Positions 36,756 to 50,685 of a stretch of DNA of 64,000 nucleotides are shown here, piece by piece (position 1 is the stretch's first letter; every line of letters begins with the position of its first letter). Position numbers and translations under genes: made by a program. Below the pieces are notes generated by a model that saw only the letters and a program-made list of their open reading frames with translations, did not search any database and had not been told where the DNA came from. Origin of the DNA: Terriglobia bacterium. Lineage in GTDB: Bacteria; Acidobacteriota; Terriglobia; 20CM-2-55-15. The stretch covers positions 800,001-864,000 of the forward strand of contig CBDAOY010000006.1 in NCBI GenBank assembly GCA_965198225.1, read 5' to 3'.

Positions 36756-36770
36756 TCAGTAGTCGGTAGT

Positions 36771-38089
36771 CAGTAGTGTCCGACACGTTTCAGAATAGAT
36801 TCAATTGGTTAGCGTTAGAGTGTCGATTTGAGATGAGCCCGGATTCGGTAAGCAGCTGAAAAAGAGGCACATTCTCAAATGGTGTGACACTCAAGATCTG
36901 TAACATTGAGTGCAACGACAAAGGCAAATTCAGTTCTTTACGCACGATAGCCACCAGCACGTAAACGCTCACGGCGACCCAGACCTGAGTTTTGACGGCG
37001 TTCTCGGAAGTGCCGAAGAAACGCTTGATGCGCAGGTGCTGTTTGATCCATTTGAAGAACAGCTCCACCTGCCAGCGCAGGCGATACAACTCGCAGATGG
37101 TCCGGGCTGGGAGCGTCATGTGATTGGTCAAGAAAACCAGTCGCCGACCCTCGGGATCGCGATAACGAATGCGACGCAACCGTTCGGGGTAGCCGCGGCG
37201 GGAGCGAAATACGGTCAGTTCGATAGTCTGATCGCAGATGAGGCCCGTGTGTCGGTCGACGGGTTGGGAGTAGATGCGCTTGAACGCGAAGTCGGATCGA
37301 GCACGGGTGACGAAGAAGCTCCCGGCTTGATTGAAGGTGTAGAGGCGATCGAAGTCGAGATAGCCGCGGTCCATCACGTAGAAAGCACCGGCTTCGGCGA
37401 TGAGCAGGTCGAGAACGTTGACGTCGTGCAGCCTGCCTTCGGAGATGTGGATGAAGCTGGGGATACCGCCACGCAGGTCGAGCAGCGTATGAAGCTTCAC
37501 CGCGGCTTCGGTCTTTCGAAAGTGCGCCCAAGGGAACAGCGACAAGCACAGACTGATCATCGTGGAGTCGAGCGCGTAGACGGTTTCGTCCAGGTCGATC
37601 CCGAGCGGCTCGTGGGCATACAAGCGGCGTGCGATGCGGATCAGCGCCTGAGCGAACTCTCCGTAGATGCGCCAGTCGCGAGACTCGTTGGCATCGGCCA
37701 ATGCACTGCGGCTGACCTTCCCGTGCAACCCCAGGTGGTAGAGCTTGGCGGGTTGGGCTCGCAAGCAGGCTTGAATGTCGCGCAGGCTCTCCCGATAGGT
37801 CAGCTGAGCGAAGGCCATGCATAGGAACTGGTCCAGGCAACTGAATGTGCGGACGTTGAAATTGCCGCGGTACTTGGTCACCAGACGACGGAACGTATAC
37901 CACGGCGCGAACTCCATGACTTGTGCGAAGACCAGCTTGCCAGCGTGCATCGGTGCCTCCCAGAAACCTCTGGAAAGGCTGCCGCGAAGGCCGCACAGAA
38001 ATCAAATCGTTAACACCTTGACAAGCGCGCTACATCGCGTCAGTTCTAACTTTAGGACCGGGAGGTCCTAAATCTGTCGGACACTACTG
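36771..38089 (-). mobile_element. Complete IS4-family insertion sequence (1319 bp) with 15-bp TIRs and 9-bp target duplication
   Basis: CAGTAGTGTCCGACA (36771-36785) / TGTCGGACACTACTG (38075-38089). Direct repeat GTCGGTAGT at 36762-36770 and 38090-38098. Confidence 0.93.
36790..37950 (-). CDS. IS4-family DDE transposase (DUF4372-type N-terminus)
   Basis: AFAQLTYRESLRDI, ALDST, KLH, MDRGY, YRLRWQVELFFKWIKQ (YREK-like) motifs. Confidence 0.93.
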   Translation of the reverse strand: MHAGKLVFAQVMEFAPWYTFRRLVTKYRGNFNVRTFSCLDQFLCMAFAQLTYRESLRDIQACLRAQPAKLYHLGLHGKVSRSALADANESRDWRIYGEFAQALIRIARRLYAHEPLGIDLDETVYALDSTMISLCLSLFPWAHFRKTEAAVKLHTLLDLRGGIPSFIHISEGRLHDVNVLDLLIAEAGAFYVMDRGYLDFDRLYTFNQAGSFFVTRARSDFAFKRIYSQPVDRHTGLICDQTIELTVFRSRRGYPERLRRIRYRDPEGRRLVFLTNHMTLPARTICELYRLRWQVELFFKWIKQHLRIKRFFGTSENAVKTQVWVAVSVYVLVAIVRKELNLPLSLHSMLQILSVTPFENVPLFQLLTESGLISNRHSNANQLNLF

Positions 38090-38134
38090 GTCGGTAGTCA
38101 GTAGTCAGTTGGCGGCTGCGCCGCGGCGCTCGAA

Positions 38135-38384
38135 GCTAGCTGGAGCTTTCACTTCCGGGCTTCCAGCCATTAGGTCACCCCAATAACTGCCGGATATAAC
38201 TACGGCGCCATACTGGAAATTGCGCCGGCGGGACTTGAACCCGCTAGCACAGCAGCTAGCCTCGCTGCGCCACTTCCTCGCTGTCTACGCTTCTCTCCCG
38301 CCGGTCACCCGGCGACAGGCAAGACTCGCTACCGGCCTGCCCTCTACGGCTTTAACCGGACTGGACTTTCACCGGTTATTTCCC
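38135..38384 (-). mobile_element. Two joined 5'-end (domain I) remnants of group II introns on the minus strand
   Basis: Minus strand reads GGTGAAAGTCC...GGTAGCGAGTCTTGC...GGTGAC...GAAGCGTAGACAGCG, similar to D1 of intron 2 at 39835-39885. It is followed by GCGCAGCGAGGCTAGC...GCGGGTTCAAGTCCCGCCGGC from 38270. No D5 or ORF is associated. Confidence 0.6.
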
Positions 38385-39050
38385 CTTGTCATCTGTAGCG
38401 CTGTCGAATAGTGTGAAACACGTCGATTCGTTGTCGAATGCAATTGTTTTCAAGCCTTTAAGCCTTGGGGAAACTCTCAAGTCGGCGGCGGCGATCGGTA
38501 TGGCGTCATGCCGCTGGGAAACAATCCAGAAAGCCTCCACGAGACCTCCGACTCTACCTTTGTGCCGAAATGGATCAGAGGGGCCTGCTGTCAGTGAAGA
38601 TCACTAAAACACCCATGAGTGAGCGCCATCCGAGAGGGACAGCGTACAGACGGACAAGAGGGCTCATTTCAACCGCGCAGACTGTTACAATCCGCTTCAC
38701 GCCTGAAGACACAGTGATTCCGTCGATCGAGATCCAGCGGGTACTTCCTGCAATGGGGTCGATTCGCGACACGGCGGCCTCTCTATTCGGCTTTACGGCT
38801 GATTTCAATGTGCGCCGTGAGAAGGCGCCAATCCTCAGCGGGTGCGAATCCCGCCCGGCAACTGTCGCTCCAGTCGGTAGCAATCGGAGCGGATGGTGGA
38901 GGTAACAACATCGTCTGAAGCACTCCGATGACAAAGGGCCGCCTCGGGCGGCTCAGCGACCACACAGGCCACAACGCGAGTAAACGCCGAGCAGGCCTCG
39001 AAACGCACAATGCGGAAGCCGACCCGCCGTTGAAACGGGGAAGGCGTCAC

Positions 39051-39710
39051 GAGCGGAAGGGGACCCCGCAAGGGTCTCCGATCTCGCCGCTGTTCAGCAA
39101 CATCTACATGCGGCGCTTCATTCTGGGCTGGAAGGTGCTGGGCTACGCCCGGCACTTCAAGGCGGAAATCGTCAACTACGCGGATGACTTCGCGGTTCTC
39201 GGTCGCGCGCCGGCAGCGGTGATGCTAGCGGCGGTCGAAGCCCTGATAAAACGTCTGAAGTTGGCGATGAACGTTGAGAAGACCCGCTGCTGCCGGGTGC
39301 CGGAGGAATCGATGACGTTCCTCGGCTACCGGATCGGTTGCAACTACCGGCCGGGTACGGGTGCCGCCTACATAGGCACACATCCGAGCCGGGAAAGCGT
39401 CCAGAGCATCTGCCGTCGTGTGAGCGAGTTGACCGCGCCGCGCCACGTGCTCCTGCCGTCGGGAGTCGTAGTGGGACGCCTCAACCGGTTGCTGATCGGT
39501 TGGGCGAACTATTTCATCCTGGGACAGGTCCGCCCGGCCTACAAGGCGATTGATCAACACGCGACCCGGCGGCTGCGCCAGTGGCTCTGCCGTAAGCACA
39601 AGGTGCGGACCGGGAAACACGTGCGCTTCCCGTCCGAGCGGCTCTGGTCCGATTACGGGCTCACGCATCTTGCGCCGCGTACGGCGAGCTTTCCGTGGGC
39701 GAAGGCATGA
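39051..39710 (+). pseudogene. C-terminal half of the intron 1 reverse transcriptase/maturase (RT4 to domain X)
   Basis: GTPQGSPISPLFSNIY, YADDF, EKT, FLGY, LNRLLIGWANYF. The N-terminal RT domains are missing and the fragment is fused directly to domain I RNA sequence. Confidence 0.88.
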
Positions 39711-40162
39711 TCTCGTCCGAGAGCCGGATGCGGGAAATCCGCATGTCCGGTTCGATGAGCGTTGCGCCTTGCAAGCGCATGAGATCCAGTCGCCTGAGAT
39801 GGCGGCCGTGGCAGAGCCTAGCCGGCAGCCACGTACCGAGTCTTGCGTGGTGGTCGGTGACGGACACTGCGAAGCGTAGACAGGGAGGGAGTAGGCCGGA
39901 ACACCAGTGAACGGAAAGATAGCCCCGAAATCGAACGTGGTTGAAGTAGCCGACCCTGTCGCTCTAGGGGGAAGGCGGAATCGCAGGGCACGCAATGGCA
40001 AGTGCCCTGGGGTGCTTCCGGGGTTCGTACCGCCGGCATGCAACCAAGGATTTCATGGGAACAAGGGAGATCCGTCAGGTTCAAGCGGAGCTTGTAGGGT
40101 TGGACAAGCCAACAACGCGAGGAAGACCCGAAGGCCTGTCGGAAGTCAGACTGGCTGATAGT

Positions 40163-41975
40163 GCGTGCCTGGCAGCACGCGTTTCCGGCGGGTTAAAGTC
40201 CCGCTCGGCCCGAGGCCACGGGTCGATATCCAACAAGTGGGGGTAATGCCTCACTGGCCGAAGTGTAGACAGGTAGTGCAGATGCCTAAACGGGCACGAA
40301 GGCGAAAGCCGGATACGGCCAAGGCAAAGCTGGAGCCAGCTACGGAAACTTTGGAGGGCAGGGCGCCCACCGCGAGGTGGGGTCTGAAGGGCATGAGGAG
40401 AACCACCGGGTCGTAATCGACGGGAGCCATCCCGAGGATGAACCGGTCGGCCAAAGATGGGGAATGGTCGAGCCCGCACTATTGGGGCGAAGGCGCATTG
40501 GTTCCACCCCATCGCACCAAGGTGTGTGCGGGCGACACGGTGGAGAAGAGACGCGAGTGACCCAGGGAGGCCTGGTATCGTCCGAGCGGAAGGTAAGGTC
40601 GAGATGATGTGGCACCCGCAGACGAAAGGGCGGGCAACCGAGAAGACAAACATCGACCTAGAGCCCTGCGCGGTAGGTGCGGATATAAGCGAGAGCGAAA
40701 TTCCGGCCGACGCGGTGTCAGGAATCGGATCGGGGAATAGTGCGTGCCTGGCAGCACGCGTTTCCGGCGGGTTAAAGTCCCGCTCGGCCCGAGGCCACGG
40801 GTCGATATCCAACAAGTGGGGGTAATGCCTCACTGGCCGAAGTGTAGACAGGTAGTGCAGATGCCTAAACGGGCACGAAGGCGAAAGCCGGATACGGCCA
40901 AGGCAAAGCTGGAGCCAGCTACGGAAACTTTGGAGGGCAGGGCGCCCACCGCGAGGTGGGGTCTGAAGGGCATGAGGAGAACCACCGGGTCGTAATCGAC
41001 GGGAGCCATCCCGAGGATGAACCGGTCGGCCAAAGATGGGGAATGGTCGAGCCCGCACTATTGGGGCGAAGGCGCATTGGTTCCACCCCATCGCACCAAG
41101 GTGTGTGCGGGCGACACGGTGGAGAAGAGACGCGAGTGACCCAGGGAGGCCTGGTATCGTCCGAGCGGAAGGTAAGGTCGAGATGATGTGGCACCCGCAG
41201 ACGAAAGGGCGGGCAACCGAGAAGACAAACATCGACCTAGAGCCCTGCGCGGTAGGTGCGGATATAAGCGAGAGCGAAATTCCGGCCGACGCGGTGTCAG
41301 GAATCGGATCGGGGAATAGTACTCAGGAACGAGACGGCAAACATAAGGTCTCGGATCGTTGCTTCGAGCAGCGGCGCTGGCGGGTCCAAAAGGCCCGTTG
41401 GAGGGGGAAGTCCCCGTACTCAGTCGTGAATGTGCGAGCGATGGGAAACGCGGAGATATCGTGGAATTGGATAGTTCCCTTAGCGAAAGACCCAAACGCG
41501 GTACGAACGAAGCCGCCACCTGCCGCCACACAGCGAATTCCGAACGAGGAGCAACTGAGGAAAGCGGCTTGCGGGAAAACCGCACGAGCCGTTTGATTGA
41601 GCGGACGGTGGAGCGGACGGTGGGATCGGCCCGACCACTTTCGACTCTACACTCAGGAACGAGACGGCAAACATAAGGTCTCGGATCGTTGCTTCGAGCA
41701 GCGGCGCTGGCGGGTCCAAAAGGCCCGTTGGAGGGGGAAGTCCCCGTACTCAGTCGTGAATGTGCGAGCGATGGGAAACGCGGAGATATCGTGAACTTGG
41801 ATAGTTCCCTTAGCGAAAGACCCAAACGCGGTACGAACGAAGCCGCCACCTGCCGCCACACAGCGAATTCCGAACGAGGAGCAACTGAGGAAAGCGGCTT
41901 GCGGGAAAACCGCACGAGCCGTTTGATTGAGCGGACGGTGGAAGGGCCGATCGGCCCGACCACTTTCGACTCTAC
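40163..41975 (+). ncRNA. ORF-less group II intron copy 3A (904 nt: 40163-40741 + 41651-41975), interrupted by copy 3B
   Basis: Starts GCGTGCCTGGCAGCACGC. D5 AAGCGGCTTGCGGGAAAACCGCACGAGCCGTTT. Ends CGACTCTAC. No RT ORF. EBS1 ACTATT at 40478-40483. Confidence 0.85.
40742..41650 (+). ncRNA. ORF-less group II intron copy 3B (909 nt, uninterrupted, innermost)
   Basis: 5' 579 nt appear identical to 3A. Contains the empty site GGGGAATAGT/ACTCAGG (41311-41327). D5 at about 41562-41594. Ends GACTCTAC. Confidence 0.88.
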
Positions 41976-42101
41976 ACTCCGAGGTCGGGAGAGCCGATCA
42001 CATGGGGAAGCGGCCAGCAGAAGTGGACTCGTTCTTGGGAAACATGAGCTCCATGCAACGGGAGGATACGGTCCTCTATGCAACGAGAGGAACAACCAGT
42101 C

Positions 42102-43424
42102 ATGGAAACGAAACTGGAACGAATAGCGGCGAAAGCTCGGAGTGAGCCAAAGCTCCGGTTCACGTCACTGGCGCATCATGTCACCCGAGAGCGTGTGTGG
42201 AAGAACCTGTGTCAAGTGCCCCGCAACACGGCTCCCGGATGTGATGGTCAGAGGGTACCGGAGGCGAAGGAGGAATTCGGAGTCTGGGTGGAGCCAATGC
42301 TCCAGTCTGTTCACCAGAAGGGATATCGCGCTCCGCCGATTCGGCGGGTGTATATCCCCAAGCCCGGCAAGCAGGAGAAACGTCCCCTGGGCGTGCCCTG
42401 TGTTCAAGATCGGGCCCTTCAGCGCAGCGTGGCCGAGGTATTGGTCGCCATCTACGAGCAGGACTTCTTGCCCTGTTCCTTTGGTGGCCGGCCTGGGCTG
42501 GGCGCCCACAATGCACTGGCAACCCTCCATGAGGTGATTTCCGGATGCAAGGTGAGTTGGGTGTTGGAGGCGGACTTGAAGAACTTTTTCGGGAGTTTAG
42601 ACCATGGATGGCTACTCCGCTTTGTGGAGCATCGAGTCGGAGATCCGCGGATCATCAGTCTGATACGACGATGGTTAAAGGCGGGCGTTTTCGAAGACGG
42701 GGAATTGCATTCGAACGAAGAGGGAACCCCGCAAGGTGGGTCGATCAGCGTTCTGCTGAGCAATCTGTACCTGCATTATGTGCTTGACCTGTGGTTTGAC
42801 CGGATGGTCCGGCCACGCCTGAAGGGTGAAGCGTATCTGGTGCGGTACATCGACGACTTTGTCGTGTGTTTCCAATATCGGGACGATGCGCTTCGTTTCC
42901 AGAACGTTCTGCGCAAGCGACTGGGAAAGTTTGGACTGGTTCCGGAGCCGACCAAGACGAAGCTCGTCGAATTCGGCCGCTATGCCCAGCGCGATGTCGT
43001 CCGGCGCGGGAGAAAACGTCCAGAGACGATCTATTTTCTGGGCATGACCCTGTACTGTACGCGTAATCGCAAAGGCAATTTTAGAGTGGGACTGCGAACA
43101 GAGAAGTCTCGACTTCGACGCAGTCTGGCTCATCTACGCGGCGTGATGAGGCGAATGCGTCACTTGCCGGTCCGGGAGCAAGTGCACAATCTGAACCGAG
43201 TCTTGCGCGGGCACTACGCCTACTATGGCATTGCCGGGAACCTCCGGGCTCTGCAGCACGTCGCTCGGGCCGTGGAACGTTACTGGCGCCAAATGCTCAG
43301 CAGTCGTAGTCGTGCAGGCTTCGTCCGGTGGGAAGTATTCAACCGGATTCAGCTGCACTTTCCGTTACAGCGTCCCAAGTTGGCTCTCCGCTATCGGGAG
43401 TTCCAGTCTCTCGCTGTGCTGTAA
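42102..43424 (+). CDS. ltrA: Group II intron reverse transcriptase/maturase, intact, no endonuclease domain, YIDD active site
   Basis: FTSLAHH, RRVYIPK...RPLGVP, ADLKNFF, GTPQGG, VRYIDDF, FLG, LNRVLRGHYAYY. Followed directly by D5/D6. GAGG precedes ATG 42102. Confidence 0.93.
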   Translation: METKLERIAAKARSEPKLRFTSLAHHVTRERVWKNLCQVPRNTAPGCDGQRVPEAKEEFGVWVEPMLQSVHQKGYRAPPIRRVYIPKPGKQEKRPLGVPCVQDRALQRSVAEVLVAIYEQDFLPCSFGGRPGLGAHNALATLHEVISGCKVSWVLEADLKNFFGSLDHGWLLRFVEHRVGDPRIISLIRRWLKAGVFEDGELHSNEEGTPQGGSISVLLSNLYLHYVLDLWFDRMVRPRLKGEAYLVRYIDDFVVCFQYRDDALRFQNVLRKRLGKFGLVPEPTKTKLVEFGRYAQRDVVRRGRKRPETIYFLGMTLYCTRNRKGNFRVGLRTEKSRLRRSLAHLRGVMRRMRHLPVREQVHNLNRVLRGHYAYYGIAGNLRALQHVARAVERYWRQMLSSRSRAGFVRWEVFNRIQLHFPLQRPKLALRYREFQSLAVL

Positions 43425-43620
43425 ATCCAATTCTGAAGAGCGCAGTGCGGGAAATCCGCACGCTGCGTTCTGTGGGAGCCGGAGGCGGGCAACTGCCTCC
43501 GGCCACCCGGTGCGACTGGAAACGAAGCCACGGCGAGGAGTGAGGCACCGGAATCGGCGAAAGCCACCGGCAACAGCTACCCCCTTTGCCTACCGCCACC
43601 GCGCCAGTCGTCGACTCTAC

Positions 43621-43703
43621 ACGAAGTAACGAAGGCAACGAAGATCGGAAAAGATATTGCTATCTTCGTCTCGCTTCGTGCCCTTCGTTACTTCGTGTTA
43701 AAA
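43621..43703. repeat. Imperfect palindrome of ACGAAG-containing 8-9-mer units (insertion target of intron 1)
   Basis: ACGAAGTAACGAAGG...CCTTCGTTACTTCGT inverted arms. Confidence 0.75.
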
Positions 43704-43742
43704 GAGAACGTTTGTCTTAGCGCAATGATCGGGTCAGGGCTT

Positions 43743-44795
43743 TCACTCGGGGCCCAGCAGCAGCTTTCGGTCGAGGTCGGCGACATTCCCGGCGCCCACT
43801 AGAAACATGGCGGTCCTCATTTCCCGGAACAACCGTTCGCCCGCCGCCACGACAGCGTCGGCCGATTCCCTGGCGGCGAGCAGAAACGGTCGGGCGACGG
43901 CCACGTAGTCAGCACCGAGCGCCAGCGCTTTGATGGCCTGGATCCCGTTCCGAATGCCTCCGCTGGCGACGATCCTTGCCGATCCTGTTCGGTCGGGATC
44001 GATCCTTTCCAGGATCCATCGCGTTGGCAGGCCGAAGTCGCTGAACATCTCACCGAAGGATGGATCCTGGCTCAGTCGGGCCTCGACCGCGGCCCAACTC
44101 GTTCCGTCGTTGCCTGAGACGTCGATGTAGCCGACACCAAGGCCGGCAATGGTTTCGACCAGTTCGGGGGCGATTCCACCGCCGCATTCCTTCACGTAGA
44201 CCGGTAGTGGACAGCGTTGGACAAAGTCGTCCAGGTGTGATGTGAGGTTTCTGAAGTCGGTGTCCCCACCCTCCTGGATCGATTCCTGAAGCGCGTTGAG
44301 GTGGAGTCCGAAAACATCCGGTCGGATGCGTTCGATGATCTGCGCGGCCTGGTCCCAGGCCAGACCGTAGTTGAAACTGACCAGTCCCAGGTTCGCAATC
44401 AAGGGGACCGACGGGGCAAGGTCGCGCACTTCGAAGCTGGGCACGGCCGCATCGTCCTTGACCATCACCTTCATCGATCCCAGGCCGAGAGGTACCTGTA
44501 GCCGTTCTGCCCCTGCGGCCAGGTTCGAGTTGAGCCGTTTGAACTCCTCTCCGACACCCCCGGTCATCGACGAGATGATCAACGGCGCCGCGATCGCTCG
44601 TCCGGCGAATCGGGTCTCTGTTGAAACTTCCGACAGAGCGAGTTCCGGCAGGGCGTTGTAGCGTAGCTTGAGGTCTGCAAAACTGTCGCGTCGCAGGTCC
44701 ACCGACGGGTCCAGACACACTTCGATGTGGCCCTGCTTACGTCTGTTCAGCGACTCGTTCAGGTCGGCGTTGGCCTCGCCCCCGGGGTCCGGCAT
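43743..44795 (-). CDS. fni: Type 2 isopentenyl-diphosphate delta-isomerase (FMN-dependent)
   Basis: RKQGHI, ISSMTGG, LGLGS, IANLG, HLNALQESIQEGGD, VKECG, GTSW, SGGIR. Confidence 0.93.
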   Translation of the reverse strand: MPDPGGEANADLNESLNRRKQGHIEVCLDPSVDLRRDSFADLKLRYNALPELALSEVSTETRFAGRAIAAPLIISSMTGGVGEEFKRLNSNLAAGAERLQVPLGLGSMKVMVKDDAAVPSFEVRDLAPSVPLIANLGLVSFNYGLAWDQAAQIIERIRPDVFGLHLNALQESIQEGGDTDFRNLTSHLDDFVQRCPLPVYVKECGGGIAPELVETIAGLGVGYIDVSGNDGTSWAAVEARLSQDPSFGEMFSDFGLPTRWILERIDPDRTGSARIVASGGIRNGIQAIKALALGADYVAVARPFLLAARESADAVVAAGERLFREMRTAMFLVGAGNVADLDRKLLLGPE

Positions 44796-44966
44796 GGGCG
44801 GTCATTCTAACACCCCATTCGAGAGACTTCCCCGGCCCCGCGTTCGGCGCCCTTGCGGTTCGGCCTCCGGCCTTTTTGGAGGCGAGGGGTCAGTTGTGGC
44901 GGATGCTGTGCTGCCTCTGCGGTAGAATTCAGGCTCCAGTCCGCCGGTAGAAGTCGAGGAGTCTTG

Positions 44967-45713
44967 ATGACTGAGAGTAACGACAGGGTATCGCCGGGTG
45001 GGGGTTCGAGCGGTATCCCTGATCGGAAACACTCCGAAGAAAAGGCCCCGTCGAGCTATCTGATCCAGGTTTCGCCACGCTTTCTCGTGACACTACTCGC
45101 GATCCTGGCGCTCACCCTCCTGCTCTGTCACGCCGCGTTGACGATTTACCACTACCAGGTCGATGAGTTGCCCTGGCTTCCCTGGCGCCAGCTCTTCGAC
45201 GTCGACGAAGAGAATAATCTGCCGACATGGTTTTCGGAGTTGCTGCTCCTTACCGCGACGGTGCTGCTGTGGTTATGCGCCGGTAAGAAGCGCCGTGATG
45301 AGGACCCGTCCTTCGGCTGGTACGTGCTGACCATCGGGTTTTTCCTGCTTGCGATCGACGAGGTCGCGGGAATCCACGAGACAATCAACAGCTTGATCGA
45401 TACGACCTGGGCGATCGGTGGCGGTTTGCTTGCTCTTGGAATTGGCCTGGGCTTCATACCGTTCCTGTGGCGGCTGCCCAGGCTAACGGCAATTCTGTTC
45501 GCCCTCGCCGGGGCAATCTATGTCGGCGGTGCGGTGGGTGTGGAGATCATCGGGGAACCACTCGACAGCGACTCGCTCCAGTACAACCTCTTAACCGTCC
45601 TGGAGGAGGGCATGGAGATGTTCGGTGTCATCTTCTTCATACACGTGCTGCTCGGCTACATGCGGGAACCTCGGGCGAACATCCTGCAGGGAGCTGTTGA
45701 GTTGACAGGGTAG
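44967..45713 (+). CDS. Hypothetical multi-pass membrane protein
   Basis: About 6 hydrophobic segments with ENNLPTWFS, IDE..IHE and EEGMEMFG charged motifs. Confidence 0.75.
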   Translation: MTESNDRVSPGGGSSGIPDRKHSEEKAPSSYLIQVSPRFLVTLLAILALTLLLCHAALTIYHYQVDELPWLPWRQLFDVDEENNLPTWFSELLLLTATVLLWLCAGKKRRDEDPSFGWYVLTIGFFLLAIDEVAGIHETINSLIDTTWAIGGGLLALGIGLGFIPFLWRLPRLTAILFALAGAIYVGGAVGVEIIGEPLDSDSLQYNLLTVLEEGMEMFGVIFFIHVLLGYMREPRANILQGAVELTG

Positions 45714-45770
45714 CGGATCCCGACGATCGCTTCGTTGACTTCCAGGCGTGCCCAAGCTAGCCTCTCGGTC

Positions 45771-47354
45771 ATGACACGACCATCCGCTTTGACCGCCGTT
45801 ATTCTGCTCTTGTCAGGGTGTAGCGGCCCTCCCCCGGATTCCGCCGCGATTCCTGACATCGACGGCGATGCGATCTCGGGCCACATCCAGGCCCTGGCGT
45901 CGGACGACATGGAAGGCCGCGCTCCCGGCAGCGCCGGGGAGGGGCTGGCGACCACGTACATCGCCGACTATTTTCGATCGATCGGCCTGGATACGTCTTT
46001 CCAGAACGTGCCCCTGGTCGGGACGACCGCAACGCCGACATCGCTGACCCTGCGCAAAGGCGGCGAAACCCGGACGCTCGCCTACCGCGATGAGTTTATG
46101 GCATGGACGACTCGGGAGGTTGAATCGATCGCCCTGGACCCGGCCGAGATGGTCTTCGTCGGTTACGGCACGGTTGCTCCGGAGTATGACTGGGACGACT
46201 ACGCGGGCGTCGATGTCGAAGGCAAGGTGCTCCTGATGCTGGTCGGAGATCCACCGCTCGAAGACGAAAGCATGTTTGGTGGACAGGCGATGACCTACTA
46301 CGGACGCTGGACCTACAAGTACGAGGAGGCCGCACGCCAGGGCGCCCGTGGTGCCTTCATCGTCCACGAGAACGCACCGGCCGGCTATCCCTGGGAGGTC
46401 GTCAGCGGATCCTGGTCGGGCGAACAGTTCGACATGGTCAAGGCCGACAGAGGGGCGTCCGAGACCGGAATCCAGGGCTGGATCACGCTGGAGATGGCCC
46501 TGCAGCTGGCCGAGTGGGCCGGGCATTCGTTCGATGAGCTGAAGCAGCAGGCGTTGAGTCCGGAGTTCAATCCGATACCGCTGGGCGTCGATGCGTCAGT
46601 CGAGATCGAAAACACGTTGAGGCATGTGGATTCGAAGAACGTCGTTGGCGTGCTCGCCGGCGAGACTGATGAGTACGTCGTCTTTTCCTCGCACTGGGAC
46701 CACATCGGAAGAGATGGCTCGATTGAGGGAGACCAGATCTACAACGGCGCCGTCGACAATGCATCCGGGATTGCCACGATGCTTGAAATCGCCCGTGCCT
46801 TCACCGCGCTGCCGGACAGGACGCGTCGGACATTGGTGTTCCTCGCCGTGACCGCCGAGGAGCAGGGTCTGCTGGGGTCGAAGTACTACGCCGAGAACCC
46901 GCTGTTCCCGCTGGAGCGGACCGTCGCCAACATCAATATTGATGGCGCGAACGTCTATGGCGCGACCGACAAGATCATCGTGATCGGCTACGGCTACACG
47001 TCGCTGGAGGACCACCTGAGGCGGATCGCGTCCGAGCAGGGGAGGGCGGTCGTTCCGGATCCGGAATCAGAAAAGGGTTTCTACTACCGTTCGGACCAGT
47101 TCAATTTCGCCAAGAAAGGCGTTCCCGCTCTCTATATTGACAGCACCAACCTTGAGGACAGCAACCGCTACACCGCCGAGCGTTATCACAAGCCCTCGGA
47201 TGAATTCGATCCCACCTGGAATTTCGACGGAGCCGTTGCGGACGCTGTGGCCCTGTTTAGTGTGGCCCTGGAGGTCGCCGATGCGGACGACTGGCCGGAA
47301 TGGATGCCGGGCACCGAATTCAAAGCGGTTCGAGACGAAATGCTCAACCGGTGA
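45771..47354 (+). CDS. M28 family metallopeptidase with PA domain, probable lipoprotein
   Basis: LLLSGC lipobox, LASDDMEGR, SHWDHIG, GAVDNASG, AEEQGLLGS, RSD, YHKPSD. Confidence 0.9.
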   Translation: MTRPSALTAVILLLSGCSGPPPDSAAIPDIDGDAISGHIQALASDDMEGRAPGSAGEGLATTYIADYFRSIGLDTSFQNVPLVGTTATPTSLTLRKGGETRTLAYRDEFMAWTTREVESIALDPAEMVFVGYGTVAPEYDWDDYAGVDVEGKVLLMLVGDPPLEDESMFGGQAMTYYGRWTYKYEEAARQGARGAFIVHENAPAGYPWEVVSGSWSGEQFDMVKADRGASETGIQGWITLEMALQLAEWAGHSFDELKQQALSPEFNPIPLGVDASVEIENTLRHVDSKNVVGVLAGETDEYVVFSSHWDHIGRDGSIEGDQIYNGAVDNASGIATMLEIARAFTALPDRTRRTLVFLAVTAEEQGLLGSKYYAENPLFPLERTVANINIDGANVYGATDKIIVIGYGYTSLEDHLRRIASEQGRAVVPDPESEKGFYYRSDQFNFAKKGVPALYIDSTNLEDSNRYTAERYHKPSDEFDPTWNFDGAVADAVALFSVALEVADADDWPEWMPGTEFKAVRDEMLNR

Positions 47355-47368
47355 CACGTGAGGTAGGC

Positions 47369-48250
47369 ATGCCACACAGGCTCCTCCCGATAGTTCTTGC
47401 TCTGGTTCTCCCCACGTTTCTCTGCGCACAGGACGGGCCGAAGAAGATCTTCATTTCTGTCGACATGGAGGGCATCACCGGCGTCGTCAGTTCCCAGCAA
47501 AGCGGATCAAGCGGGCGCGACTACCCCACGTTCCGCCGGATCATGACTGAGGAGGTGAATGCCGCCATCGGAGCCGCGCTACGGATGGGAGCGGAAACGA
47601 TCCTTGTTTGCGACGCTCATGGCAACAAGCAGAACATCCTGCCGGAGTTGCTCCATCCCGCGGCCCGCCTCGTCCGGGGAGATCCCCGGCCCCTGGGCAT
47701 GATGCAGGGCCTGGATGAAACGTTCGATGCCGCGATGTTCATCGGGTACCACGCTTGGGCCGGAACGTCCGATGCCGTCCTCGATCACACGATGAACGGT
47801 CGAATCCACGATCTGAGGCTGGATGGCAACCAGATGTCGGAAGGCACGTTCAACGCAGCTCTCGCCGGGTCACTTGGAGTGCCCGTGATTTTCGTTTCCG
47901 GCGACCGTGCGGCGGTGGAACAGATTCGGGAGTTTGTCGGGGATGTCGAGTCGGCCATCGTCAAAGAGGGCGTCGAACAGGCGACGATTTCCGTGTCTCC
48001 CCGCAGAGCGCTCGAGATGATCGACGAGTCGGTCGAACGGGCCATGCGCCGCTATTCGGATTTCAGACCCTATTCTGCCAGCACTCCTCACAGCGTCGAA
48101 ATCGATTTCTCGACGGAAGCCCAGGCCGGGATGGCGTCATGGGTTCCGTCGGTAAGCCGCGTGAATCCGCGCTCGATCCGGTTCACCGCAGACGACATGC
48201 TGGATGCGATGAGGATGACACGGCTGCTGGCGATCTACGTGAGCCCCTGA
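47369..48250 (+). CDS. M55 family D-aminopeptidase (DppA-like) with signal peptide
   Basis: ISVDMEG, CDAHG, IGYHA, LDHT, SE, VSGD. Confidence 0.9.
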   Translation: MPHRLLPIVLALVLPTFLCAQDGPKKIFISVDMEGITGVVSSQQSGSSGRDYPTFRRIMTEEVNAAIGAALRMGAETILVCDAHGNKQNILPELLHPAARLVRGDPRPLGMMQGLDETFDAAMFIGYHAWAGTSDAVLDHTMNGRIHDLRLDGNQMSEGTFNAALAGSLGVPVIFVSGDRAAVEQIREFVGDVESAIVKEGVEQATISVSPRRALEMIDESVERAMRRYSDFRPYSASTPHSVEIDFSTEAQAGMASWVPSVSRVNPRSIRFTADDMLDAMRMTRLLAIYVSP

Positions 48251-48285
48251 GCGCGGGGAGAGCGCGGTCATAGACGCACGATTGT

Positions 48286-50685
48286 CTATTCCCTCGGGTT
48301 GTGCGTGTACACCAACGACATGATCCGCCATTCTCCGTCCTTCTTCACCAGGTGGAAAGCATCGACGCCGTCGGCGACGTAGTCGCCGACCGTCACGGTG
48401 TAGCGGGTCCAGACCGCGGCGATGTTGTCGTCGATCTGGATCATCGGGTTCGACATCTCTTCGTTGATCCGGCCTTCGCCGTCGGCCAGGCCCTCGGCCC
48501 ACTCCTCGACCAGGATGAAGTCCTGGTTGCGGCCGTCGTCCCCCTCCCGGTCGGAAACCAGCATGGCGCCGGGCCAGAACAGGGTCTTCATGCCCTCGCC
48601 GTCACGTTCGGCCAGGTAATCGAAGACACCTTGGACGACGTCGAGTACCTGTTCGCGGTCGGTCCGGGTGTCGGCCACCTCGGTTCCCAGAACGTTCTCC
48701 GAGAAGAACGCATACTCCCTGCGCATTTTGTCGAGTTGATGCCGGGGCTCGCGGAGCCCGTGCGGTTCCCTGGGATACCAGACCATTTGTACCGGCACGT
48801 CGTTCTTTTTCAGCCCCATGTAGAGCTCCTGAGCCTGGCTCTTGGGCACGCGTTGGTCCTGCTCACCGTGCATGATCAGTGTCGGTGTCTTCGCCTGTTT
48901 GATGAAGGTCATTGCCGAGGCCTTTCGGTACTCCGCCTCATCATCGAACGGCGTGTCCCCAAAATAGCCTTCCAGTAACCGCTGCAGGTCGTTCGTCGAG
49001 TACATGCTGAACATGTTCGTCAGGCCGGCGCCGACCATCACGGCCTTGAATCGGTCGGTCTGCGTCAGCGTCCAGGCTGTCATGTAGCCACCGTAGCTCC
49101 ACCCGGTCTGGCCCATGCGGTCGGAATCGACGACACCTCGCCGGATCAGTTCATCCAGCCCGGACTGTACATCTTCGTAGTCCCCACCACCCCAGTCCTT
49201 GAGGTTTGACATCTGGAACTCTTCACCGTAGCTGGAACTGCCGCGTGGATTCGGCAGCAGCGTGACCCAGTCGTTGCCTGCCCACACATGAGCGTAGTTG
49301 CCCCAACGCCCTGGGAAGCTCTGGGTCCACACGCCGGACGGGCCGCCGTGAACGTTCATCAATACGGGGTATGTCTTTTCCGGATCGTAGTCGACGGGGT
49401 AGATGATTACCCCTTCGATCTCGCGCCCGTCTTTGCTCCTCCAGCGAATGACTTCGCTCTCACCCATGGCGATGTCCTCGAGCTGCGGGTTGTGGTCTGT
49501 CACCCTGGCCGGGTCGAAACTGGGTAGAGAAGCCACGAACACATCATTGGGGTGCTGCACGTCGGTTCGAGCGAAGGCGAACGTCTTGCCGTCAGCCGAC
49601 ACCGAATAGCCGGAGACGACCCCGGCATGGTCGGTGACCTGGGTGACATCGCCGCCGGATGCAGGCGCCCTGAAGATCTGGCGTGTCGTGCCCTGCCCGG
49701 CCTGGAAGTACATCGTGTCGCCGTCAGCCGAGAAACGGATATTGTTTACCGGTCTATCGAAGTCCGGTACCAGCGATCGGGGTTGGCCCCCCCCTTCGGG
49801 GATGGCATGGAGCCGCGAGAACCCCACCGGTCCTTGGCTCGCCGGGCGGGTGCTGAAGAGGATCGTCCCGCCGTCGGCGGACCATACCGGCCCGGTATCG
49901 GAACCTTCGTTCTCATACAGCTTTCGCGGCGTACCGGAGCCGTCTGCGCGCGCCACGTAGATGTCGCTGAGGCTGCTGTCGTCGGCCCTTGGCGTCGGAC
50001 GCCGGGAATACGCGATCTGCGTTCCGTCGGGCGACCATGCCGGTTGGCCCACGACGAAATCGCCCCGTACGATTTCTTCCGGGCGTCTCGACTCGATATC
50101 AATGACGTGGAGGCTCGAGTAACGAAAGTCTTCGTCGATGACCTTTGCGTCGTCGCGGTCCCTCCGCTTCTTTTCCTCTTCGTCGGTGAACGGAACCTGC
50201 GCTGTGTAAACGATCCGGGTCGAATCACCGGACCAGGCGAAGCCTCCGGCGCCGGACTTCGAGTCCGTCAGCTTCATCGCCTCTCCGCCATGAGGCGAGA
50301 TCAGGTAGATCTGCGGGCGGTTGCGGTCTTCGATGTCGCCGCCGGTCGGAGTCCCCCGATCCGTCTCCCGGTTCGAGATGAATGCGATCCACTTGCCGTC
50401 CGGGGACCATCGGGGCCTCCGGTCATTATCGCCGGAGGTAAACCGGCGCGCGTTGGTTCCGTCTGCGGAGACGAGCCAGATTTCCGAACGCGTCTCGTTG
50501 TCGTCCATGACCGCGTACGAAAGTGTGTAGACGATGCTCTTACCGTCTGGCGATATCTGCGGTGAGCCGACGTTCTTTGTCTCCATGACGTCTTCGAACG
50601 TCATCGGCCGTTTGTCCTGGGCCACACCGAACACGGTGGCCAGCAGAATCACTGAAGTTGCCAAAGCCGCAGTACGCCTTTTCAT
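48286..50685 (-). CDS. Secreted S9 family peptidase (acylaminoacyl-peptidase-like) fused to a C-terminal NTF2-like domain
   Basis: WSPDG/PD40 repeats, VHGGP, NPRGS, GWSYGG, DQRV, EPHG. Extra ~125 aa ending GVDAFHLVKKDGEWRI. Confidence 0.9.
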   Translation of the reverse strand: MKRRTAALATSVILLATVFGVAQDKRPMTFEDVMETKNVGSPQISPDGKSIVYTLSYAVMDDNETRSEIWLVSADGTNARRFTSGDNDRRPRWSPDGKWIAFISNRETDRGTPTGGDIEDRNRPQIYLISPHGGEAMKLTDSKSGAGGFAWSGDSTRIVYTAQVPFTDEEEKKRRDRDDAKVIDEDFRYSSLHVIDIESRRPEEIVRGDFVVGQPAWSPDGTQIAYSRRPTPRADDSSLSDIYVARADGSGTPRKLYENEGSDTGPVWSADGGTILFSTRPASQGPVGFSRLHAIPEGGGQPRSLVPDFDRPVNNIRFSADGDTMYFQAGQGTTRQIFRAPASGGDVTQVTDHAGVVSGYSVSADGKTFAFARTDVQHPNDVFVASLPSFDPARVTDHNPQLEDIAMGESEVIRWRSKDGREIEGVIIYPVDYDPEKTYPVLMNVHGGPSGVWTQSFPGRWGNYAHVWAGNDWVTLLPNPRGSSSYGEEFQMSNLKDWGGGDYEDVQSGLDELIRRGVVDSDRMGQTGWSYGGYMTAWTLTQTDRFKAVMVGAGLTNMFSMYSTNDLQRLLEGYFGDTPFDDEAEYRKASAMTFIKQAKTPTLIMHGEQDQRVPKSQAQELYMGLKKNDVPVQMVWYPREPHGLREPRHQLDKMRREYAFFSENVLGTEVADTRTDREQVLDVVQGVFDYLAERDGEGMKTLFWPGAMLVSDREGDDGRNQDFILVEEWAEGLADGEGRINEEMSNPMIQIDDNIAAVWTRYTVTVGDYVADGVDAFHLVKKDGEWRIMSLVYTHNPRE

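Follow-up and report, generated by a model that had tools for sequence, protein, structure and literature searches.

In the genome of a bacterium assigned to Terriglobia (Acidobacteriota) by its nearest named records, four group II introns lie one inside the other on the plus strand. The nest is located on contig C6 of a 6.4-Mb assembly (genome G000, with contigs C4, C5, C6, and C8 mentioned here), in a 64,000-nt stretch (C6:800001–864000) that was analysed as a whole and is hereafter called the window; its own numbering is used below. The outermost intron, I1 (38810–43620), contains I2 (39762–43511), I2 contains I3A (40163–41975), and I3A contains I3B (40742–41650), a second copy of the same intron, I3. 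All four boundaries are exact. We consider this locus, with a probability of about 85%, to be a fossil stack left by successive retrohoming of three unrelated endonuclease-less lineages, each of which would have targeted a conserved RNA-coding motif of other introns.

Architecture and boundaries of the nest

The original prediction of this nesting and of the coordinates of the four introns was confirmed by repeat analysis, BLAST, and comparison with guest-free counterparts. The sequence at 40128–40427 occurs again at 40707–41006, and that at 41321–41620 occurs again at 41651–41950. BLAST aligned 40163–40741 with 40742–41320 without a mismatch (579 of 579 nt) and 41321–41650 with 41651–41975 at 97% identity. 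The I3 halves in the window (5p, the 5′ half; 3p, the 3′ half) stand in the order 5p-5p-3p-3p, and the inner junctions carry exact termini (...AATAGT/GCGTGCC and CTCTAC/ACTCAGG; slashes mark junctions). Since a tandem duplication would yield 5p-3p-5p-3p, this order indicates the self-insertion of I3. Removal of each layer in silico had been said to rebuild the motif of the host, and each rebuilt motif is contiguous in natural copies: AATAGT/ACTCAGG within I3B and in solitary I3 copies, GATAGT/ACTCCGAGG in 60 of 80 natural I2 homologues, and GATGAGCG/GCGACTGG in two guest-free I1 copies of the same genome. The I2 homologues are the 80 loci in named genomes found with the I2 reverse transcriptase (RT) as query. 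At all three levels, the host-intron sequence that borders the guest exactly runs on uninterrupted in copies lacking that guest, which is how a twintron is recognised, and a complete intron was recovered for each layer after removal of its guest.

The four domain 5 (D5) hairpins that had been predicted folded as expected of a ca. 34-nt D5 that combines an AGC triad, 2-nt bulge, and GNRA-type loop (39721–39753, 41563–41593, 41893–41923, and 43438–43470). A bulged A in D6 was present in the folds of I2, I3A, and the rejoined D5–D6 of I1, while the fold of the I3B variant was less clear; the Rfam alignment also placed the bulged A in I1 and I2. Rfam matches on the plus strand were D1D4-4 at 38836–38979 in D1 of I1 (82.8 bits), D1D4-6 at 39797–40031 in D1 of I2 (137.2 bits), and D5–D6 at 39719–39780 and 43436–43511. 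With the D5–D6 model RF00029 (gathering cut-off, 40 bits), only I1 (40.3 bits in the window) and I2 (47.1 bits) scored above the cut-off. The three proposed pairings between exon-binding site 1 (EBS1) and intron-binding site 1 (IBS1) held up through covariation in relatives, and all insertions were located, as had been proposed, in ribozyme domains and not in open reading frames (ORFs), namely in the D6 stem of I1, a D3 loop of I2, and a D3-like loop of I3.

Mis-assembly of repeats, or a local tandem duplication that mimics nesting, might be suspected in a repeat-rich genome with at least 31 maturase matches and 32 D5–D6 matches over the whole assembly, in which the short-read contigs over the nest end at repeat borders. 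We find such an artefact scarcely credible. Tandem duplication is excluded, as it cannot produce 5p-5p-3p-3p with exact intron termini at the two inner junctions, and 5′ junctions of I3 in I3 occur at four places (the window, C5:63402, C4:151332, and C8:159308), one of them with an inner copy diverged to 82%. Furthermore, an I2–I3–I3 nest with 99.6% identity is present in an independent Terriglobia assembly (L001), where it is inserted in a different host intron, with a D5 hairpin and UGUGAGCG again as its flank, which makes an assembly artefact unlikely. The short-read contigs came from two metatranscriptome runs and two other runs compared with 38500–43900. They contain the joints of 39761 to 43512 and of 40741 to 41651, each of which is the DNA sequence of guest-free copies in the genome and is therefore uninformative on splicing. 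The joint of 40162 to 41976 was absent from the list for these four runs, which has no bearing on splicing, transcription, or contiguity.

The broken outer intron

The 5′ segment of I1 (38810–39761) starts with GTGCG and comprises D1 (first 236 nt), a deletion junction, a C-terminal RT remnant, D5 (39721–39753, by both Rfam and folding), and, up to 39761, the first 5 nt of D6 (GAGCG). Its 3′ segment (43512–43620), which has CTAC at its end and is 100% identical in 10 copies, contains what remains of an extended D6, including the bulged A. The RNA termini, GUGCG...AC, match the GUGYG...AY consensus. The EBS1 loop GTTGAAA (39029–39035) is complementary to the 5′ exon TTTCAAT, and two classes of this pairing were found among I1 copies: exon UUUCAAY accompanies loop GUUGAAA, and exon AUUUUG accompanies the variant loop CGGAAU.

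Compared by BLAST with a full-length copy of 1994 nt (C6:7952→5959), the I1 of the window split at positions 236/235, its positions 1–236 and 235–952 being contiguous with each other in the window. Position 236 is joined to position 1168 of the full-length element (39044–39047, the junction falling between 39045 and 39046), and the missing 931 nt extend from just past the EBS1 hairpin to RT motif 4, thereby covering the rest of D1, D2, D3, and RT motifs 0–3. The remaining open frame (38928–39710, 260 aa) matches only the second half of Pfam RVT_1 (profile positions 111–205), together with GIIM. An intact I1 RT of 479 aa is encoded by another copy, and a second uninterrupted copy is located at C5:743403. 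Because D1–D3 of this I1 cannot fold after the loss of 931 nt, a splicing cascade cannot be completed, and, as judged from its sequence, I1 is dead irrespective of its guests.

It had been predicted that the stack works as an obligatory four-step cascade, strictly from the inside out, which depends on a single RT and restores the flanking exons. The guests do interrupt D3 and D6 of their hosts, and the RT of I2 (42078–43424, 448 aa, RVT_1 and GIIM by Pfam) is the sole intact ORF of the stack. Against this, I1 lacks the 931 nt described above, and the flanks, which lie beside an insertion sequence (IS) element and an intron fragment, are non-coding; a Pfam search of the flanks revealed no coding gene formed by the flanking exons after removal of all introns. 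The claim of a single RT for the whole stack was correct insofar as the I2 RT is the only intact one inside it, but the cognate RT of I3 is encoded at two loci outside the nest. The three RT lineages are 30–33% identical pairwise, and the RT of the I3 parent has only 32% identity with that of I2; it is therefore doubtful that the I2 RT serves the whole stack, and it is not an obvious helper for I3. The cascade did not hold as a working device, and we regard it as very improbable. Any splicing would plausibly start with I3B, go on to I3A, and finish with I2, I1 taking no part.

A circularly permuted group II intron (PMC8637638) was also considered and rejected, as guest-free I1 copies have the normal order of D5 and D6.

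I2 in domain 6 of I1, and its relatives

The 5′ segment of I2 (39762–40162) starts with TTGCG and comprises D1, D2, and the 5′ strand of D3 as far as the loop AUAGU, and the 3′ segment (41976–43511) comprises the remaining D3, D4 with the RT ORF, D5 (43438–43470), and D6, ending with GGT. Within I1, I2 follows nucleotide five of the D6 5′ strand, at a point two base pairs above the bulged A. RF00029 aligned across the empty site in the uninterrupted 1994-nt copy of I1 (152 nt, 45.2 bits). Among the I1 3′ segments of the same genome, eight of 10 are preceded by an I2-type 3′ end and two are uninterrupted.

For alignment, the two pieces of I2 in the window were joined in silico, with I3 removed, to give 1937 nt. 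The alignment was complete (1–1937) in 60 of the 80 loci, at 73–89% identity. In all 60, the sequence across the I3 site (CTGATAGTACTC or ...CTGATAGT/ACTC...) is contiguous and the site is thus empty. All 60 also start with TTG(C/T)G and end with GT (CCCGGT in 56 and CCCAGT in four).

The EBS1 of I2, CGCTC (39960–39964), is complementary to GAGCG in D6 of I1. Over 58 loci, the D1 loop at 39958–39965 covaries with the last 5–6 nt of the exon; pairing at six of six positions was obtained for 38% of the loops with their own exons versus 13% of the cross combinations. The classes observed were GAGCG:CGCUC, GCGGG:CCCGC/U, GGGAG:CUCCC, and AGGAG:CUCCU.

A D5-like hairpin ends 5–12 nt before the junction in 42 of 56 full-length I2-family loci with enough flank, compared with 221 of 2215 random positions. 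When a profile of 13 D5 sequences from this genome was used, 34 of 56 loci gave a match, always ending 5–8 nt before the junction, and the control windows gave eight matches in 1092. Nine of 15 scanned loci have a host-intron Rfam D1–D4 match upstream on the same strand, often only ca. 590 nt away, which implies hosts without ORFs. The I2 lineage appears to be usually located directly after the D5 hairpin of another intron, in several phyla. Another acidobacterial assembly contains an I1-like host with an I2-like guest (full length, 81% identity), and a Methylobacter assembly contains an I1-like host without an ORF. Two loci on one chromosome of Vicinamibacterales, a different order of Acidobacteriota, show self-nesting in D6: an I2-like guest has entered another I2-like intron at its position 1904 (L046 and L051).

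At the I2-like loci L018, L031, L033, and L038 (with L055 a less clear case), the guest lies in a small GUGCG intron that has no ORF and whose D1D4-6 match is only ca. 590 nt before it. These hosts raise the idea that an outer intron lacking an RT uses the RT of its D6 guest. Two I2 relatives have large inserts, L003 and L054 (ca. 2.9 kb near position 60 and ca. 1.4 kb near position 1750, respectively), which may be guests.

I3 in domain 3 and domain 3-like sites of its hosts

I3B is a complete ORF-less intron of 909 nt, with EBS1 ACTATT at 41057–41062 and D5 at 41563–41593. The 5′ segment of I3A (40163–40741) corresponds to I3 positions 1–579, with EBS1 ACTATT at 40478–40483, and its 3′ segment (41651–41975) to the remainder of the D3-like region, a short D4, D5 (41893–41923), and D6 with the bulged A, ending with CTAC. 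Apart from 1251 nt of D4 that it lacks, I3 matches an intron of 2154 nt. This parent is present at C6:345941→343788, with a second copy on C5, and encodes an RT of 475–479 aa with RVT_1 and GIIM and without an endonuclease domain. The genome has ca. 20 I3 copies, several of which are solitary, ca. 905 nt long, and align over positions 1–909. In the D6 extension of I3B (41600–41625), a 12-nt repeat of the preceding 12 nt replaces 7 nt of the common I3 form. The repeat destroys an inner GGGCCGAUCGGCCC hairpin; L001 has the common form in both copies.

The consensus fold of 49 distinct I2-family 5′ parts gave D1 at 6–305, D2 at 306–386, and a hairpin at ca. 390–448 before the ORF. I3 lies between U401 and A402 of I2, in the 5′ strand of an internal loop (AUAGU/A) opposite GAAG. 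This D3 hairpin has 17 pairs; in 40 distinct natural relatives, 99.3% of cells were paired and four pairs showed compensatory changes, column 11/58, for example, being G-C, A-U, C-G, or G-U. None of 500 shuffles equalled it, and slid partners paired in at most 52% of cells. I3 itself carries a like frame, CGGGG-AAUAGU/A-CUC ... GGG-GAAG-UCCCCG, and by analogy of this motif its insertion site would be assigned to D3.

Of the 20 I3 5′ junctions in the genome, as assigned from their flanks, six are in I2, four in I3, nine in six other host types (A–F), and one in a sequence that is not intron-like; TAGT precedes 18 of them. For four of the host types A–F, their nature as introns was confirmed by matches to Rfam or to maturases on either side; D1D4-2, D1D4-3, and D1D4-6 structural types are among them. 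The EBS1 loop covaries with these sites, as the loop ...ACUAUU is found after RAUAGU or similar and the loop ...ACUAUG after CAUAGU in three of five copies. Some outer copies have diverged, to 96% in I1 variants and to 83% in an I2 variant, and yet the inner copies within them are 100% identical, which argues for independent insertions. The exon ends with GU at 18 of 20 sites (40161–40165 and 40740–40744 in the window), and the RNA GU/GCGUG there mimics GUGCG 2 nt upstream of the boundary.

Several findings weigh against successive retrohoming as the origin of the stack. Each of the six I2 copies of this genome that extend as far as position 401 has I3 there, which would equally fit the spread of I2–I3–I3 as one composite twintron, either by retrohoming of an I2 lariat together with its guests or by gene conversion among I1 copies; the inner layers would then have arrived with I2 and would not have been added at the window locus. 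The identical double nest in another genome within a different host intron points the same way. Forms 5p-3p-3p and 5p-5p-3p at other loci, which fit pruning by recombination between the duplicated halves, could, like the single form, be derived from a double nest. However, I3 is also present in the 83% I2 variant and in host types A–F and hence was inserted independently, 60 of the 80 I2 relatives elsewhere are guest-free, and a guest of 0.9–1.8 kb in the D3 loop may block catalysis by I2. Composite movement is thus conceivable and, in our estimate, rather unlikely.

The remaining points against successive retrohoming concern the I1 junction, the termini, and the fold of I3. The 931-nt deletion junction of I1 was found at this locus only. 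The termini of I2, UUGCG...GU, depart from the GUGYG...AY consensus, although UUGYG...GU is kept in 60 of 60 relatives, and so does the I3 5′ terminus GCGUG (GCGUG...AC), which is fixed by two junctions without the usual exon GU. Folding of the D3-like region of I3 as a single sequence did not recover the proposed helix and was not significant (z = −0.94), the Rfam D1–D4 models gave no match to I3 at E ≤ 0.01, and the D5–D6 of an I3 copy on another contig scored 36.9 bits, below the cut-off. Terminal consensus is typical of group II introns and does not define them; thus, we kept all three as group II introns on other criteria. Introns with altered termini are listed in PMC4424553. An RT/maturase with RVT_1 and GIIM is encoded in D4, by I2 in the window and by the I1 and I3 lineages in other copies, and the D1–D4 covariance models scored above the gathering threshold for I1 and I2, with I3 unmatched. 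Against solved structures, all three RTs matched group II RTs only in a general way, and comparison with the endonuclease-less classes (PMC3552965) did not settle the RT class.

By DNA search of 30 relatives, I3 was found only in G000, apart from pieces with 77–83% identity in a single genome that belongs to the same class. An I3-type RT was found at E ≤ 1e-60 in 38 of 401 genomes of the phylum, a tally that includes the unpublished genome G179. The nearest of these RTs is 55% identical, and its intron starts with GTGCG at a site that is not AUAGU. These searches, by DNA in 30 relatives and by RT in 401 genomes, did not demonstrate a D3 preference across the I3 family.

Nests of this kind are numerous in G000, and two further arrangements involving I3 were observed there. 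At L125 (C5:605300–610500), an I1–I2–I3 nest has an IS110-family transposase gene within I1 and a deletion that joins I3 position 555 to position 1126 of the I2 3′ part. The mosaic at L156 (C4:145300–154100) and C5:889100–892510 begins with an I1 5′ part that has a 1.5-kb insert at position ca. 190 with a 348-aa ORF on the opposite strand. A complete D1D4-2-type intron follows, and then the 5′ part of a second D1D4-2-type intron, fused through I3 copies (5p-5p-3p) to an I2 3′ part and an I1 tail. This mosaic looks like the result of recombination between I3 copies in different hosts.

Surroundings of the nest

The nest is intergenic. On its left are an IS transposase gene (36790–37950, minus strand; DUF4372 and DDE_Tnp_1 by Pfam), with copies on C8, and the 5′ fragment of another group II intron (38230–38369, minus strand; Rfam D1D4-6, 59.3 bits), near which the maturase search of the assembly gave no match. 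The IS element (36758–38107) has near-identical copies at C8:483657–485006 and C8:271428–272749 and adjoins the truncated intron fragment. On the right, a palindromic spacer is followed by a gene for an FMN-dependent dehydrogenase (minus strand). The 3′ exon of I1 (43621–43700) forms a long imperfect palindrome (acgaagtaacgaagg ... ccttcgttacttcgt) with a short minus-strand self-match; genomes from the same family contain related pieces, and the palindrome is possibly a terminator, possibly a repeat element. The sequence at 43616–49410 is duplicated at C8:586361–592156 (5.8 kb, 99.86% identity), and the duplication starts at the exact 3′ end of I1. The C8 duplicate has an intron-free I1 site, ...TTTTCAAC/ACGCAGTAACGAAGG (TTTTCAAC/ACGCAG...), and a left flank unlike that of the window.

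Discussion

The locus is a real four-layer nest, and, on the sequence evidence, it is best understood as what introns leave behind, product and fossil in one, when they home into other introns, rather than as a working four-step splicing device. In the history that we propose, I1 would have entered an intergenic TTTCAAY/ACG site, and I2 would then have reverse-spliced into the 5′ strand of D6 of I1, guided by the pairing of its EBS1 CGCUC with GAGCG. The 905-nt ORF-less I3, for which the RT of the 2154-nt parent presumably acted in trans, would have followed into AUAGU/A in D3 of I2, and a further I3 into the equivalent AAUAGU/A motif of the resident I3. At some point that is not placed in this order, the 931-nt deletion would have taken most of the I1 ribozyme and half of its RT. 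Since every new copy brings fresh D3 and D6 motifs, nests would renew their own homing sites, and homologous recombination between the duplicated halves would prune them.

The complex twintrons of Euglena plastids consist of several nested introns with guests in functional domains, and the inner ones often must leave first. They are organellar, degenerate introns of groups II and III within genes, and not mobile RT-encoding bacterial lineages with family-wide targets. A 2003 report by Dai and Zimmerly is said, by its title, to describe homing into related intron ORFs in Methanosarcina; unlike this, the three sites here are ribozyme motifs (D6 stem and D3 loop) in a bacterium, and the three RT lineages are 30–33% identical. 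Methanosarcina acetivorans has up to five nested introns, with homing into introns and pruning by recombination, and it resembles the present case in the absence of coding exons, in ORF-less members, in site-specific homing, and in nests that act as perpetual homing sites (PMC4424553). In Thermosynechococcus elongatus, TeI3 in TeI4 is likewise an ORF-less derivative that uses the RT of a relative and a conserved site, and identical inner copies in diverged outer ones were likewise read as recent independent insertions, but that nest has a single level, and its site in DIV is flanked by two start codons (PMC2882425), whereas the nest described here has four levels, D3 and D6 sites, and self-insertion. 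The Trichodesmium twintron is also bacterial with an inner intron in a ribozyme domain of its host (D1), but it interrupts a conserved protein gene and its sequential splicing was shown in vivo (PMC4649490); here the nest is intergenic and the outer intron broken. The 'zombie' twintron cox1i1149g2 of Lycopodiaceae is a group II intron inside a copy of itself, but it concerns domain IV in a plant mitochondrion with a degenerate, unspliced inner copy (PMC7049729), whereas here the site is a D3-like loop, the 5′ halves are identical, and the arrangement recurs at several loci. In 'zombie' twintrons of plant mitochondria, the outer intron is spliced without prior removal of the inner one (PMC7049729).

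In bacteria, nesting of group II introns is regarded as rare (PMC4649490), and intron-finding pipelines discard nested introns (PMC4028801 and PMC8919778). For annotation, this matters because nests conceal outer introns and inflate the counts of 'fragments'. The present nest looks distinct from the known ones in that every target is a ribozyme motif, that the preference for D6 looks clade-wide, and that the termini are unusual. In the literature searched, which did not cover supplements that may list bacterial twintrons, we found no description of these three points or of homing directed to D6 or D3, neither for the putative D6 habit of the I2 clade nor for the putative retargeting of I3 to D3.

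Taking both lineages together, we lean slightly towards the view that the clade represented by I2, spread over multiple phyla, has its main home in other group II introns and, together with I3, forms a self-sustaining, layered ecology of introns on introns. The I2 clade may be marked by a homing site just a few nucleotides past D5, on the D6 5′ strand and opposite the branch adenosine, by co-changed termini (U1 and a penultimate G), and by hosts that are often small and ORF-less. I3 may be an ORF-less intron retargeted to the conserved internal loop of D3, both in copies of itself and in at least six intron types. It can now be tested whether a folded guest is tolerated in D3 or D6, whether an outer intron lacking an RT uses that of its guest, and how the U1...G termini affect catalysis. 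Some intron lineages appear to be specialised for conserved ribozyme motifs of other introns; if true, this would provide retroelements with a harmless, self-renewing niche and would be a route by which non-coding DNA expands.

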